A stretch of 64,000 bases of DNA, taken from the NCBI GenBank assembly GCA_018238155.1, contig JABCTZ010000032.1:32001-96000 (forward strand), read 5' to 3'. The notes beneath the pieces are model-generated. The model was not told where the DNA came from, made no database searches, and saw only the letters and a list, made by a program, of their open reading frames with translations. This DNA comes from Candidatus Heimdallarchaeota archaeon. Its GTDB lineage: Archaea; Asgardarchaeota; Heimdallarchaeia; JABLTI01. Below are positions 34,068 to 39,543 of the stretch, piece after piece; the stretch's first letter is position 1; every line of letters starts with the position of its first letter. Position numbers and translations under genes: made by a program.

Positions 34068-34222
34068 ATTAGCTACTTCCTTCTTGGATGGAATATCAAA
34101 TATCAATTCCGATCCTAAAAATATGAACTAATGCGATGACTATGTTATAATATAGATTAATGTTTTCTATTGCGGCAAAACGAATAAAAAGAATTAGAAA
34201 TGGCACTGATAGCGCCATTCTT

Positions 34223-34858
34223 CTATTTTTCTGATAGAACTATCTCTAAAAAGAGCTCATGAAATCTGGTATCGTCAGTTAATTCTGGATGAAATGTTAC
34301 TGCCAATAGTTTCCCTTGCTTAGCTGCATAGATTTCTTCTGTAGATTTACAGAGAACTTCAACAATTTTTCCAACAGTTTTGATAATGGGAGCTCGAATA
34401 AATACTCCTGGAAAAGTTTTTTTGCCAAAACCTTGGACAACCAGATCTAATTCAAAAGATTCTTGTTGACGACCATATTTATTTCTAAGCACATCTATAT
34501 CCATCAACTCTAACAATGTTTGTGTGAATCCTTTAACTACTTTATCCGTAGAGGATTTTGAGAGCATAACAGTACCTGCACAAGTACCAAATAAAGCCAT
34601 ACCTTTCTTACCTTTCTCTTGGATCATTTTTATGAGCTTTTCATCAAATCGTTTTTCCTCAATGAAACGACTCATAACAGTACTTTCTCCACCCGGAATA
34701 ATTAGACCATCAATCTTTTCTAATTGTTCGGGTGTTTTTACACGAACAGTTTTAGTTGGAATATTCTTTTTCGCTAGAACCTTATCCATCATGAGAACAT
34801 GCTCTAGAACATCGCCTTGAATAGCTAATACACCAATTGTAATGTTTTTCTTAGCCAT
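34223..34858 (-). CDS. pdxT: PLP synthase glutaminase subunit
   Basis: GVLAIQGDV, IIPGGEST, GTCAG, FIRAP, FHPEL. Confidence 0.96.
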   Translation of the reverse strand: MAKKNITIGVLAIQGDVLEHVLMMDKVLAKKNIPTKTVRVKTPEQLEKIDGLIIPGGESTVMSRFIEEKRFDEKLIKMIQEKGKKGMALFGTCAGTVMLSKSSTDKVVKGFTQTLLELMDIDVLRNKYGRQQESFELDLVVQGFGKKTFPGVFIRAPIIKTVGKIVEVLCKSTEEIYAAKQGKLLAVTFHPELTDDTRFHELFLEIVLSEK

Positions 34859-35832
34859 TATGAATCAGCTCCTCGTTCTTGCATACTAAATTTCATTTCT
34901 GCACCTGTTAACCCAAGCATTGCTTTTGTTTCACTGACCATTTCTTGAGCTTCGATAACAACTTCAGGATGTTCCCAATAAGTTGTTGCTAGAACAACTG
35001 CAGAAGCTCTTTGTAATGCGTCTTCACTTTTGAAAATACCAGAACCAACAAAGACTCCATCAGAACCCAATTTCATCATTAGAGCAGCATCTGCGGGAGT
35101 ACTTATACCACCTGCTGCGAAATTAACTGTAGGTAATCGACCCAATTTTGCAGTTTCTAAAACAGTTTCAAAGGAAACTTTCATAGCTCTCGTTTTGAAC
35201 ATTAATTCTTGGTAATCATTAGCTTCGTAGAGACCTTTGATTTCTCTAATTTCATTGTTGACCAAACGAATATGGCGAACTGCTTCTGCAACATTGCCTG
35301 TGCCTGGTTCTCCTTTTGTACGAATCATTGCTGCGCCTTCATCAATTCGACGTAAAGCGCTACCAAGATCAATAGCACCACAAACGAAAGGGGCAACAAA
35401 GTCCCATTTCCATATGTGCCTGAATTCATCTGCCGGAGTTAATACTTCAGATTCATCAAGACAGTCTGCACCTGTCTCTTGTAATACAAGCGCTTCTCCA
35501 GTGTGACCAAGACGACATTTTGCCATTACTGGAATAGTAATTGCATCTAAAATATCACGAATGATTGGTATTGAAGCAGGACGTGCAACTCCACCACTTC
35601 TTCTTACATCAATGGGCAATTTATCAAGAACCATTACTGCCACTGCTCCTGCTTCTTCAGCAATATGAGCTTGTTCAACAGTAGTTACATCCATGATAAC
35701 GCCACCCTTTGTCATACGAGCGAACCCTCGCTTAACGCGATTTGTACCTCTCACAACTTTCACTTCAGTTGCGATTTGTTTTGTAATTTCGCCCGTTTTC
35801 ATATATGATCTTTCGGGGAACAAGTTTTTCAT
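34858..35832 (-). CDS. pdxS: PLP synthase lyase subunit
   Basis: [50 protein letters not shown]; ATG 35832 follows GAGAGGA SD. Confidence 0.97.
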
Positions 35833-35852
35833 TTTGAGAATCCTCTCATTAC

Positions 35853-35890
35853 TATACAAGTTACAACTTGTATATTCAAGTTATAACATG
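35853..35890. promoter_or_regulatory. Tandem palindromic operator in the pdxS / thrC-like divergent intergenic region
   Basis: TATACAAGTT-ac-AACTTGTATA perfect 10-bp arms (35853-35874) and second core CAAGTT-at-AACATG (35877-35890). Confidence 0.7.
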
Positions 35891-36000
35891 CAAATATTGA
35901 AATAGATGATTAAAAAATATTGTGTAGAAATAGCTTTATCGGTAACAGAAACGAAAAGAATAAAATAAATTAGTTAATAGATATCGAGGAGTTTCAATAA

Positions 36001-37458
36001 ATGAAAAAAAATGTTATTTGTGGTAATTGTAAAGCAGAATTGAGCACTTTGCAGAGATCAGCAACATGTCCACAATGTAGTGCTACCGAAGCTGAATTTG
36101 TTATTAATTTAGAAAACAATGAAACTCTCAAAATAAAAACAAACGAACAAGGAATATGGAAATATGAAGATTTTCTTCCAATATTTAAGAAAAGAATCTC
36201 TTTAGGAGAAGGTGATACTCCTCTAAGGCTGGCTCAAAATCTTTTCTCTAAAGATTTACAGCTTTTCGTAAAATTCGAGGGGAAAAATCCTACAGGCTCG
36301 TTTCTTGATCGAGTATCTCCATTAATGGTTTCTGATGCTATTAGTCGAAATATGGATTCGATAGTCTGTGCCTCGGATGGTAATTTAGGTGCATCTATTA
36401 GTGCCTATTGTGCAGCAGCAGATATTAAGAGCGTTTGTGTAATACCAAAAAGCACCTCTCCTGAGAAGAAAGTACAAATGACTGCTTATGGTGCTGAAAT
36501 CATTGATTTTGGTGAAACAATAGATGATAGTTTAGATTTAGCAAAGAAAATGACTGATGTTAAAAGATATCAAGCAACACCAGAGTTCAATTTATTAACA
36601 ATTGAGGGCGCAAAAACAATCTCATTAGAAATAGTACATCAATTACTCTCTCAAACCAACAATGTACAATTACCTTGGATTGAATATCTAGTTGTACCTA
36701 TCGGCAGTGGACGTTTGCTCTATTCAATTTGGAAAGGCTTCAAAGAAGCAAAACGATTTGGGTTGATAGCTGATCAAGAACTACCAAAGTTAATTGGTGT
36801 TCAAATAAAAGGTTATGATTCAATTACAAATGCAATAAAAGCAGGAGCAGCTGAACCAAAAGAAATCAAAAGGCGGAATTCAGTAGATCATTCATTAGGT
36901 GATGCAATTCTCACAAGAAAATCAGTTTATGGTGTAAAAGCAATTCAGAGCATCAAAGAAAGTAATGGGACATCAATTACAGTAACTGAAAAAGAGATGA
37001 TTAATGCTAGCAAGAAATTAGGGAAAGCAGAAGGAGTCTTTGCTGAGCTATCAAGTGCTACAGTTATTGCAGCGATTGAAAAATTAAACAGAAAACAATT
37101 TTTTGAGACTGGTGCCATTGTTTTAGCTGTAATTACTGCTAGTGGGCTTAAAACTTCACGGGCTTTTCAAAAAAGTGCTACTCGTTTGAAAAAAGTCGAT
37201 TCATTTAGAAGCATGGGTACTAAAGTAGAAATATTAACAATAATTGATTCTAAAGAAGCAAATTTTGGGTACAGTATCTGGAAAGCACTCGGACAATCTT
37301 TATCTTTGCAAGCTGTTTATCAACATCTTAAAGAACTATCTTCTAGAAAACATATTGTTGAAATTGAATCCACTGATCGTCAAAAGAAATATCGTTTAAC
37401 AGGAAAAGGTAAAAAATTGATTCAAAAAATGAGTGAATTGGAAGAATTGTTGCCATAA
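36001..37458 (+). CDS. Threonine-synthase-fold protein lacking the PLP lysine, fused to C-terminal winged HTH (putative regulator)
   Basis: SLGEGDTPL, NPTGSFLDR (K->L), ASDGN, PIGSG; C-terminal ILTII..GYSIWKAL..QAVYQHLKEL..YRLTGKG. Confidence 0.85.
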   Translation: MKKNVICGNCKAELSTLQRSATCPQCSATEAEFVINLENNETLKIKTNEQGIWKYEDFLPIFKKRISLGEGDTPLRLAQNLFSKDLQLFVKFEGKNPTGSFLDRVSPLMVSDAISRNMDSIVCASDGNLGASISAYCAAADIKSVCVIPKSTSPEKKVQMTAYGAEIIDFGETIDDSLDLAKKMTDVKRYQATPEFNLLTIEGAKTISLEIVHQLLSQTNNVQLPWIEYLVVPIGSGRLLYSIWKGFKEAKRFGLIADQELPKLIGVQIKGYDSITNAIKAGAAEPKEIKRRNSVDHSLGDAILTRKSVYGVKAIQSIKESNGTSITVTEKEMINASKKLGKAEGVFAELSSATVIAAIEKLNRKQFFETGAIVLAVITASGLKTSRAFQKSATRLKKVDSFRSMGTKVEILTIIDSKEANFGYSIWKALGQSLSLQAVYQHLKELSSRKHIVEIESTDRQKKYRLTGKGKKLIQKMSELEELLP

Positions 37459-37479
37459 ATTTTCTTCCATAGTTCATTT

Positions 37480-39543
37480 TTATTTAGGTGTTTTGTCAGT
37501 TGGTACATGTACAATACCTTCTAAGGGTATTTTTTGCATACAATGAGGACAGATTCCTTTCGTTTTAACCCATTCTTGAAGATGGGATAAATGACCTTTT
37601 GATTCACACAAACTACAGAAACCGATATCCTCTCCAAAATTAATGGGTAATTTACACACTGTACAATGTATTGTTGTTTGTCCACAATCTGGACAGAGTT
37701 TGAATGAGTTTTCGATTGGATATCCACAATAGTAACAAGTATACTCACTCGCTTCTTTGAAACTATTGATAATTCTGTTTATTGCTTCTTCAGCTTCAAC
37801 TGATTCACTTTGGAGCAATTGAGGTATTTTTATTACATCCTTCTGTACTTTAAAAGCAAGTTCATCTGGTAGTTCAAGTAACCATTTTTCTAGTTCTAAC
37901 GTTTCCTTGAATTTGAGAAGTTTTACCATCCGTTCCAAAGATATTTCACTATATCTTTTGATGATTTTTCTCAAGTTAGTTTCTCGTTCCTTTTGTAATA
38001 CTAAATCTGCTTTATTGGTATGTCGTTTCTCTAGAATTTCTTTCTTCTTTTGTTCTAGCTCGTAGAAAACTTGTCTTTGAGCGAAATTTCGTTCGATTGC
38101 TCCTGATTCATAAGCAGCTGTTAATTGAATATAATCCTCGAAACCTAATTTCTTTCCAATTTCACTTAACATAAAAGCAGCTAAAGAACGAACGAGTGTG
38201 TTTTCATCTTTCATTAAATTGATCAATTCAGGGATTGCTTTTTTATGCTCCATCTTTACAATTGAATTTGTAGCTTCTTCTCGAATATCCATATCCTCGC
38301 AGCAACGAATTAAACCAATGAGTGCGGAGGGATTCCCTTTCTTTCCTAATTTAAGTAATGAATTTCTAACTAAGGTTATTATTTCTTCATCTTCATTTTC
38401 TTTATTGAGTATATCAATCAAAGCTGTAATGATTACTTTTGTTCCTATTTGACCTAATGCTTTTGCAGCAGTTTTTCTCACGGTCAAACTTTCATCTTCA
38501 TAAAGCAAAGCAATTAGTAAAGTGGAAGAATTAGTTGAACCGATTTCAACTAGAGATTCTATAGCTTTAACTCTTAATTCATCATCAGTTTCTTCCTCAA
38601 TGACGGTCTCAAGAGCCTTGATGATTTCTCCACCACCAAGTTTTCCAAAGGCATCAATGACTTCTAGTCTCAACTCATCATTTCTTTCTTGTTTCAAAAT
38701 TTCGATAAAAAGATTTGTTGCTTCTTTCGCATTTATATTTCCTAATGCTTTTACTGCTTCAGCTCGAACAAGAATGTCTCCATCATTCAAAGCAGTTTCA
38801 AGAAGAACAGGAATTGCTTCTTTAACTTTCATTTTTCCAAAAGCTTCTGCAGCAACTGCACGTTCATATGGTTGAGAACTCTCCATTAATCTTGTTAGGA
38901 GCTTTGGAATAATTGAAGTGTCTCCTAATCCTCCTAAAACAGCTTCAATGTTCACTTTTACATCTTCATGTTTAATTTTATCTAGTGCTCGATGCAATTT
39001 AGAGATGACTTCTTTCGTACCGATTTTTGCAATGGTTTTAATTGATTCTATACGAACAATTTCATCTTCTTCTTCATTTATGATAATTTTATTGAGAACA
39101 GGAATTATCTCTGAACCAACTATTCTTTCTAATGCTTGAATAGCATAAATCCTAATATTTTGTTCGTTGTAATCTGTGGCTATTCGTTTTAACGGTTTTT
39201 CTGCTTTTCTTGCACCTATACCAATTTTGCTGAAGGTTTCAATTAATAATTGTAGAATTTCCTCATCTTCATAAAAATTGGTAATAAGTTCAATGAGTTC
39301 TGGAACAGCTCTTTCTGATTTTGAACCAAAGTTTCCCAAAGCACCGATAACAATATACAAAACATCATAATTTGTTTCGTTTTGCAATGTTTCAATAAAG
39401 GCTGGAATTACTATATCTGCTTCTTCTTGAAAATTAACTAATTCTTGAGCTGCTTCAAATCGGACTACTTCATCTGTATCCTTCCTTAAAGTTGCTATCA
39501 ATTCTTTTGCTCTTGAAACAGTTTCCTTTTTTTCTTCGCTCAT
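37480..39543 (-). CDS. HEAT-repeat protein with C-terminal PCI-like helix bundle, zinc ribbon and RING-like domain
   Basis: More than 12 HEAT units; YSEISLERMVKLL; CYYC..CPDC; CTVC..CSLC..HLSH..EW..CPHC. Confidence 0.8.
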   Translation of the reverse strand: MSEEKKETVSRAKELIATLRKDTDEVVRFEAAQELVNFQEEADIVIPAFIETLQNETNYDVLYIVIGALGNFGSKSERAVPELIELITNFYEDEEILQLLIETFSKIGIGARKAEKPLKRIATDYNEQNIRIYAIQALERIVGSEIIPVLNKIIINEEEDEIVRIESIKTIAKIGTKEVISKLHRALDKIKHEDVKVNIEAVLGGLGDTSIIPKLLTRLMESSQPYERAVAAEAFGKMKVKEAIPVLLETALNDGDILVRAEAVKALGNINAKEATNLFIEILKQERNDELRLEVIDAFGKLGGGEIIKALETVIEEETDDELRVKAIESLVEIGSTNSSTLLIALLYEDESLTVRKTAAKALGQIGTKVIITALIDILNKENEDEEIITLVRNSLLKLGKKGNPSALIGLIRCCEDMDIREEATNSIVKMEHKKAIPELINLMKDENTLVRSLAAFMLSEIGKKLGFEDYIQLTAAYESGAIERNFAQRQVFYELEQKKKEILEKRHTNKADLVLQKERETNLRKIIKRYSEISLERMVKLLKFKETLELEKWLLELPDELAFKVQKDVIKIPQLLQSESVEAEEAINRIINSFKEASEYTCYYCGYPIENSFKLCPDCGQTTIHCTVCKLPINFGEDIGFCSLCESKGHLSHLQEWVKTKGICPHCMQKIPLEGIVHVPTDKTPK

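Follow-up and report, generated by a model that had tools for sequence, protein, structure and literature searches.

Vitamin regulators that join a DNA-binding winged helix-turn-helix (wHTH) to an enzyme-derived sensor are a known design. In archaea, ThiR is said to regulate thiamine in this way. RbkR is a second archaeal wHTH regulator with an enzyme-derived vitamin sensor, and it acts on synthesis and transport genes by way of palindromic operators (PMC5397151). In bacteria, PdxR likewise fuses a sensor derived from a pyridoxal 5'-phosphate (PLP) enzyme to a winged helix, and its gene is divergent from pdxST. PdxR is composed of an N-terminal GntR wHTH and a fold-type I (aminotransferase) domain with the PLP lysine retained, and its regulon comprises pdxST, pdxK and a pdxU-type energy-coupling factor (ECF) transporter (PMC5320631). 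The MocR subfamily has been described as "not present in Archaea" (PMC5320631), and a PLP pathway survey of 2023 includes no regulator from archaea. In this study, we analyzed a 64,000-nucleotide stretch of a Candidatus Heimdallarchaeota archaeon (assembly GCA_018238155.1, contig JABCTZ010000032.1, positions 32,001 to 96,000; hereafter the window), in which a gene coding for a 485-residue protein resembling threonine synthase (ThrC) lies divergent from pdxS-pdxT. Our results indicate that this protein, a dead ThrC domain followed by a wHTH, is very probably a switch for vitamin B6 supply genes in many archaea.

The similarity to PdxR concerns the kind of sensor, the divergent gene arrangement and the occurrence of operators as repeated boxes. 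The initial annotation had proposed a fold-type II analogue of bacterial MocR/PdxR, and this comparison holds at the level of regulon content, that is, pdxST and a pdxU-type transporter (PMC5320631). As regards membership of MocR/PdxR, we found a B6 regulon with promoter operators together with a different domain architecture: the regulator described here has a C-terminal PadR-type wHTH and a fold-type II (ThrC) domain whose lysine is dispensable. It would thus function in the manner of PdxR without belonging to this group. Unlike RbkR, which is still an enzyme, it cannot be one, and it differs from both RbkR and ThiR in the vitamin, the sensor fold and the placement of the DNA-binding domain. 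With threonine synthase it shares the fold at about 30% identity, the zinc ribbon of archaeal ThrC and the motifs NPTGSF-DR, SxGN and TG-GLK, but it lacks the Schiff-base lysine and the NPYRIEG arginine, its phosphate loop is altered and the wHTH is additional. The last 87 residues have the topology of short PadR-s2 regulators such as LmrR and CdPadR_0991, but here the wHTH is appended to a 400-residue sensor; dimerization of the regulator is predicted to occur through the ThrC-like domain. Altogether, the regulator represents a known design built from a different fold, and no account of it was found in the searchable literature.

The regulator gene and the parts of its product are located in the window as follows.

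36001..37458, plus strand: regulator gene (ThrC-like pseudoenzyme with wHTH), 485 aa; from the open reading frame (ORF), domains, fold and homologues
36019..36078, plus strand: N-terminal zinc ribbon with four cysteines (C7, C10, C23, C26); from the alignment
36196..37137, plus strand: fold-type II PLP (PALP/ThrC-like) domain, residues 66-379, the presumed sensor; from PF00291 and Foldseek
36304..36306, plus strand: codon CTT for Leu102, at the position of the Schiff-base lysine; from sequence and alignment
37195..37455, plus strand: C-terminal PadR-type wHTH, residues 399-485; from the model and matches to PadR-family structures

The initial annotation had read this ORF as a threonine-synthase scaffold ending in a PadR-like winged helix, and both parts of that description were borne out. 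The PALP model PF00291 matches residues 66-379 (E 1.1e-61). An AlphaFold model of the whole regulator (pLDDT 86.4) has a body like that of ThrC, joined by a disordered linker (383-405) to a C-terminal module with the order helix-helix-helix-strand-strand-helix, and Foldseek aligns the body to the threonine synthases 2zsj, 1v7c and 6nmx at TMt 0.82-0.84 (2zsj, E 1.7e-28 and TMt 0.83; 1v7c, TMt 0.84). At residues 410-483, the Pfam scores for PadR (PF03551, 25.0 bits, gathering cut-off 27) and HTH_45 (23.9 bits, cut-off 25.5) stay just under their thresholds, and many homologues of the regulator carry a precomputed PF03551 match. When the last 87 residues were modelled separately (pLDDT 90.9), the best Foldseek matches were PadR-family regulators, namely 5dym (TMq 0.80), 9qbc, 1xma and LmrR, with TMq values of PadR-family structures ranging from 0.72 to 0.82. 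The topology of this module, H1-H2-H3-wing-H4, is that of the PadR fold.

The regulator gene is full length and well conserved. Its recognition helix is near-invariant (SLQAVYQHLKEL), with residues Q441 and H442 invariant. The cysteines C7, C10, C23 and C26 are also invariant in the orthologue alignment, and the CCCC set is found in all full-length fusions as well as in archaeal canonical ThrC. Prediction of a dimer gave a score of 0.73, against 0.00 for the best control, with at least 55% contact agreement between runs and a partner pLDDT of at least 80; of 30 proteins whose structures were solved as one-chain pairs, 20 attain the mark set for this score, as does 1 of 23 whose structures were solved as a single chain. 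The predicted interface is the ThrC-like one, and the pass may stem from recall of solved ThrC dimers.

Fold-type II PLP chemistry requires a Schiff-base lysine. In an alignment of canonical ThrC sequences with 62 ThrC-wHTH fusions, this position holds K in 56/56 canonical enzymes, while the fusions show R (28), K (16), L (10), I (6), M (1) and S (1), and a set of 120 database matches also includes F, Q and Y. The tabulation of this residue over ThrC+wHTH homologues, which the initial annotation had proposed, therefore yields K, R, L, I, M, F, Q, S and Y; the motif NPTGSFLDR that it had singled out is exactly as first noted, at residues 96-104 with the CTT codon of Leu102 starting at 36304. 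This leucine is not a sequencing error, because 35 of the 37 homologues with at least 50% identity that cover the position carry L, M or Q, and the other two carry F.

Further features of the enzyme are lost throughout the family. The arginine of the ThrC motif NPYRIEG, conserved in canonical ThrC, is absent from all 62 fusions, including those bearing the lysine. In addition, SnGNxG replaces STGNTS and GSGgL replaces GNAGN; in the regulator itself, the substrate-site motifs read SDGNLG (for STGNTS) and NLLTIEG (for NPYRIEG). The fusions retain the Asn of SxGN, the Thr of TG-GLK and the stretch EGiFxEPxS. From the ThrC structure 1V7C, we take the lysine to form the Schiff base, the arginine to hold the substrate phosphate, the asparagine to contact O3' and the glycine loop to hold the cofactor phosphate. 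The residues lost in the fusions would then presumably be those that hold the substrate, and the retained ones those that hold the cofactor.

In line with these changes, the regulator scores under the cut-off of every NCBIfam ThrC model: the best, NF004170 ("threonine synthase"), gives 354.7 bits (cut-off 421), NF006050 gives 180 bits (cut-off 303) and TIGR00260 gives 137.7 bits (cut-off 167.1). A true ThrC with the lysine (GQNPTGTFKSRG) is encoded elsewhere in the same genome (C20:142798-144006; NF006050, 553 bits, cut-off 303). Judged from its sequence, the 485-residue protein is not a threonine synthase, because the lysine and the NPYRIEG arginine are gone, all ThrC cut-offs are missed and the genome has a genuine enzyme. 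NF004170 (PRK05638) has 442 positions, and its alignment to the regulator (positions 3-441) takes in the wHTH; this "equivalog" probably describes the fusion family under a wrong name. It was over its cut-off in 0 of 14 control genomes, and hence the model archaea among them are not hosts. The label of threonine synthase, which annotation pipelines had been expected to assign to the regulator, is indeed a widespread misannotation carried by NF004170 and by many records.

On the other side of the regulator lie the PLP synthase genes and, in front of them, two putative operators.

34223..34858, minus strand: pdxT, glutaminase subunit; TIGR03800
34858..35832, minus strand: pdxS, PLP synthase lyase subunit, 324 aa from ATG 35832; NF003215 and orthologue starts
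35853..35874, no strand: putative operator 1, a perfect 22-bp palindrome, TATACAAGTT-AC-AACTTGTATA; from a position weight matrix (PWM) and conservation
35872..35895, no strand: putative operator 2, weaker; PWM 19.8 bits

Both pdx genes exceed their model cut-offs (pdxS, NF003215 425 bits, cut-off 395; pdxT, TIGR03800 203 bits, cut-off 105.55), and the pdxT start and the pdxS stop share 1 nt. The divergence between regulator and pdxS-pdxT described initially is real, with both genes lying on the minus strand at 34223-35859. The longest pdxS ORF (34858-35859) begins at a TTG at 35859, inside the operator. From the sequence, ATG 35832 is most likely the start, because it agrees with the orthologue gene calls (324 aa), with the alignment and with a Shine-Dalgarno-like GAGAGGA at 35841-35847. 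The spacer to the regulator measures 142 bp from the longest ORF and 168 bp from ATG 35832. In all 12 orthologous loci (57-91% protein identity; L, M or Q at the lysine position), pdxST is divergent from the regulator. The outer flanks differ among these loci, and the pdx linkage of homologues, on which the initial proposal had depended, is kept in 12/12 all the same.

Operator 1 occupies the same place in all 12 orthologous loci, while the remaining spacer has diverged. It extends over the core promoter of pdxS, 21-42 nt ahead of the ATG, and is unique in the window, where 0.06 matches would be expected at up to 3 mismatches. Using a PWM built from the orthologous sites, we scanned the entire 4.08-Mb assembly (90.7% complete) and obtained only three matches above 14 bits: operator 1 (36.5), operator 2 (19.8) and one at C6:41398 (15.7). 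The last was set aside as a further operator, as it appears to fall in coding sequence, and the scan of this genome gave no operator cluster besides the one at pdxS. Operator 2, the second-best match of the genome, is 20 bp from operator 1 and overlaps the sole TATA-like element, TTATAA at 35881-35886; tandem sites 18-20 bp apart recur in relatives. The pair likely reaches from the TATA box to the probable transcription start. The region between TATA box and start is the usual position of archaeal repressors. For 34200-37500, no RNA data set was listed, the runs that came up being marine-sediment DNA with a small share.

ThrC-wHTH fusions are common in archaea, and they were found in Bathyarchaeia, Thermococcus and Pyrococcus as well. 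Within the phylum of the window, matches at E <= 1e-40, a threshold passed by a few canonical ThrC as well, occur in 171 of 301 sampled genomes, and the family is present in at least two archaeal phyla. R-type members occur in the cultured archaea Thermococcus chitonophagus, Pyrococcus kukulkanii and Pyrococcus sp. ST04, and the sister clade of the window proteins is the R-type of the same class (SH-aLRT 87). The initial annotation had mentioned such fusions in other archaea, which were not known to be characterized as regulators; they proved widespread, and no characterization was found in the literature that could be searched. That search returned no paper on ThrC-wHTH proteins or on an archaeal B6 regulator, most subscription journals being outside its reach.

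The distant fusions (30-42% identity) are not adjacent to pdxST. We considered this as evidence against a link to vitamin B6, and the question was resolved by their shared neighbor, a gene for the S component of an ECF transporter (PF07155/PF12822), here called ecfS. By neighbor clustering, ecfS is the commonest neighbor of the fusions, being directly adjacent at 40 loci and in three orientations: on the same strand in Bathyarchaeia, convergent in the Loki-like K-type clade and divergent in the Thor-type clade. The closest outgroups of the window clade (about 50% identity; F or L at the lysine position) also adjoin ecfS, and one Thor-type member with I at this position is divergent from pdxST instead. 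A profile of 24 ecfS members had a single PDB match, 4HZU_S (E 2.6e-28). This chain is Lactobacillus brevis HmpT (PdxU2), whose extracted substrate was identified as pyridoxamine (PMC4860826). Among the HmpT pocket residues, Y120, N140 and Q143 are kept in the archaeal proteins, E41 is replaced by D and H84 by an invariant K. On sequence grounds, the HmpT-like ecfS is a probable B6 importer in many archaea.

To follow the operator in relatives, we used a consensus pattern derived only from the pdxS sites of the window clade and considered matches with 0-1 mismatch, for which the chance is estimated at about 0.1 per genome and a 150-bp upstream region represents 4e-5 of the genome. A search at 3 mismatches was dropped, as it gave no more matches than the reversed-pattern control. 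In the R-type genome G133, the best genome-wide match (0 mismatches) is directly upstream of ecfS. In two other R-type genomes, G003 and G026, the best matches are tandem and again directly upstream of ecfS, at 22 kb and 150 kb from the regulator gene, respectively. No pdxS is present in G133, G003, G026 and G213, two of the four being single-contig assemblies. The genomes G196, G097 and G172 possess pdxS, and there the operator sites are upstream of pdxS. The operator follows the target gene, not the neighborhood. At eight further loci (8/8), the top PWM site of the fetched stretch is just upstream of ecfS or pdxS, with scores of 12.7-33.3, and at 14 control loci with ecfS or pdxS, taken from regulator-free families of the class (f3, f4 and f6), there was no upstream site, the best score being 0.2.

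The same motif is found in more distant clades. All 13 K-type Loki-like loci have ATATAAGTTnnAACTTATAT palindromes in tandem, at a distance of 25-70 nt upstream of ecfS. At the bathyarchaeial loci, TAGTATAGTTrTAACTATACTA is placed between the regulator and ecfS and is clear in 9 of 10 (it is not obvious at L023). The core AGTT-nn-AACT is common to the sites of the window clade, the R-type, the K-type and Bathyarchaeia, often in tandem, and this common core fits the near-invariant recognition helix. The initial proposal that the regulator controls the pdx genes thus gained a conserved palindrome over the pdxS promoter, which elsewhere tracks pdxS or the HmpT-like ecfS only where the regulator exists.

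The distribution of the two targets is complementary. Among 83 genomes of the Asgard class, related genomes not being independent samples, pdxS occurs in 28, the HmpT-like ecfS in 41 and both in none; pdxS was not found in 55 of the 83. Such complementarity would be expected if ecfS served to import the pathway product. The window genome has pdxST and no HmpT-like ecfS. A genome of the same genus, G123, has no pdxS and carries instead an ecfS preceded by the operator, together with a regulator of 36% identity (L154, G123:C27:1-4500). Switches between pdxS and ecfS are seen inside a genus, inside a family and from one family to another. These data suggest widespread B6 auxotrophy with uptake in the Asgard class.

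The domain make-up, the loss of the lysine, the conservation of the operator and the link between regulator, operator and target are computed results. From them we consider it quite likely that, at this locus, a regulator derived from a dead ThrC domain controls pdxST through the palindrome by sensing a B6 vitamer, probably with repression in the liganded state, and that its relatives control pdxST or ecfS elsewhere. The regulator would act, probably as a dimer, by binding the 22-bp palindrome at 35853-35874 and its weaker neighbor over the pdxS-pdxT core promoter, and occupancy of these sites would control de novo PLP synthesis. The ThrC-like pocket would reversibly bind a phosphorylated B6 vitamer, most likely PLP, and so report the free B6 pool, and vitamer binding would set the affinity for DNA. 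In the most likely logic, the protein, once it carries the vitamer, sits on the operator, between TATA box and transcription start, and pdxST is repressed. Across the family, proteins recognizing the core AGTT-nn-AACT would control whichever B6 supply gene the genome has, pdxST or the HmpT/PdxU2-like ecfS. A Schiff base does not seem to be needed for this regulation, because the K, R, L and I forms share operator and targets. We lean towards the view that ThrC-wHTH proteins are general archaeal B6 regulators, at least in Asgard archaea, Bathyarchaeia and Thermococcales, which work without a covalent Schiff base, use one operator and act on either PLP synthase or an importer.

Some observations weigh against this interpretation. 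DNA binding by the regulator, the identity of the ligand and repression are what we infer, and the roles assigned to ThrC residues rest on general structural knowledge rather than on a cited paper. The window-clade loci come from close genomes (two genera of one family in the GTDB sample), and on its own the conservation of adjacency is shallow. HmpT was first predicted to be a hydroxymethylpyrimidine transporter, and the substrate of the archaeal proteins is a predicted one. Some R-type members have no B6 gene nearby (Thermococcus chitonophagus; L097-L100 and L102), and several families hold pdxS or ecfS without the regulator. In G196, tandem sites that are readily seen by eye have a low PWM score (3.9).

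Other explanations share part of this evidence. As the main alternative, the same regulator and operator could serve activation, the apo-protein turning pdxST on when B6 is scarce and the vitamer releasing it. This is how bacterial PdxR behaves according to PMC9997740 and PMC5320631, where it activates pdxST and PLP counteracts, and PdxR has the same divergent arrangement. The sites here, however, lie 21-63 nt upstream of the pdxS ATG and appear to overlap the sole TATA-like element and the likely transcription start. The usual binding place of archaeal activators is upstream of the B recognition element and TATA box, and we regard activation as unlikely, if worth keeping in mind. It is more doubtful still that the ligand of the sensor is no B6 vitamer but, for instance, an amino acid, a PLP-amino-acid adduct or O-phosphohomoserine, which would make B6 supply depend on amino-acid status. 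In favor of this, an amino-acid enzyme is the ancestor of the domain, aldimine formation is still conceivable in K-type members, and MocR regulators such as GabR sense an amino acid via bound PLP (PMC5320631). Yet the regulon consists of B6 supply genes only, with one site cluster in the genome of the window and pdxS or ecfS elsewhere. Moreover, the substrate-phosphate arginine and the STGNTS threonines are lost in all fusions, and without the lysine (L, R, I and others) there is no internal aldimine and no transaldimination.

A protein that is enzyme and regulator at once has a precedent in RbkR, which joins riboflavin kinase activity and regulation (PMC5397151). The lysine is kept in 16 of the 62 fusions, and for the regulator itself a bifunctional role would mean some reaction catalyzed without it. 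Established knowledge of fold-type II chemistry speaks against this, and so do the variation of the position (K, R, L, I, M, F, Q, S, Y) within one family with one operator and target set, the loss of the substrate-binding residues and the true ThrC in the genome; we consider such a bifunctional protein very improbable. Least credible of all is that the protein, a decayed paralogue of ThrC, does not regulate anything and that the palindrome is bound by another factor or represents a promoter element. In its favor, binding of the protein to the palindrome is deduced from sequence, and TATA-like-rich palindromes are common in AT-rich archaeal promoters. Against it, the motif is found at all regulator-bearing loci examined in four clades (being not obvious at L023) and at 0 of 14 control loci, the gene keeps its length, its conservation and an invariant recognition helix, and the linkage survives three gene orientations. 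Repression of B6 supply genes by a vitamer-bound regulator is the reading that we prefer.

Several additional observations were made at these loci. The Thor-type clade (I, L or M at the lysine position) has a palindrome of another sequence, CCTATATATAGG, placed 8-20 nt before the ATG of the regulator itself; it occurs at L025, L027, L028, L029, L125, L126 and L127:7785-7830, with ATATATAA about 8 nt further up, and could be an operator or a promoter element. The R-type gene of T. chitonophagus (L129:7001-8326) follows genes for a proteasome beta subunit and aCPSF1 (KH/beta-CASP) and precedes a gene of the amino-acid-kinase family. In families f4 (with ecfS) and f3/f6 (with pdxS), loci L160-L173, the B6 supply genes are accompanied neither by the ThrC-wHTH regulator nor by the operator, and these genes must be controlled differently or not at all. 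In the window, 37480-39543 on the minus strand codes for a 687-residue protein with HEAT repeats, a weak PCI match and C-terminal double zinc ribbons, and one orthologous locus (L132) has a similar gene close to the regulator. An MFS/ATG22-like transporter gene, often with a class I/II aminotransferase gene after it, adjoins pdxT in at least six of the orthologous loci and may be a further B6-related gene.

L001:2755-4230, L091:4741-6231, L131:1729-3213 and L133:1743-3284, not in the window: MFS/ATG22-like transporters beside pdxT

The results of our study name a candidate archaeal B6 regulator together with its operator and regulon, in a domain of life from which MocR/PdxR is stated to be absent, and they correct the widespread naming of these proteins as threonine synthases. 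The family illustrates in an instructive way how a PLP enzyme fold can become a cofactor sensor in which the covalent lysine is no longer needed. The cultured hosts of R-type members, T. chitonophagus, P. kukulkanii and Pyrococcus sp. ST04, make this reading directly testable. If it is true, the ThrC-wHTH family marks which archaea make vitamin B6 and which import it. The clean split between B6 producers and importers among Asgard archaea bears on their syntrophic lifestyle and on the media used for their cultivation.

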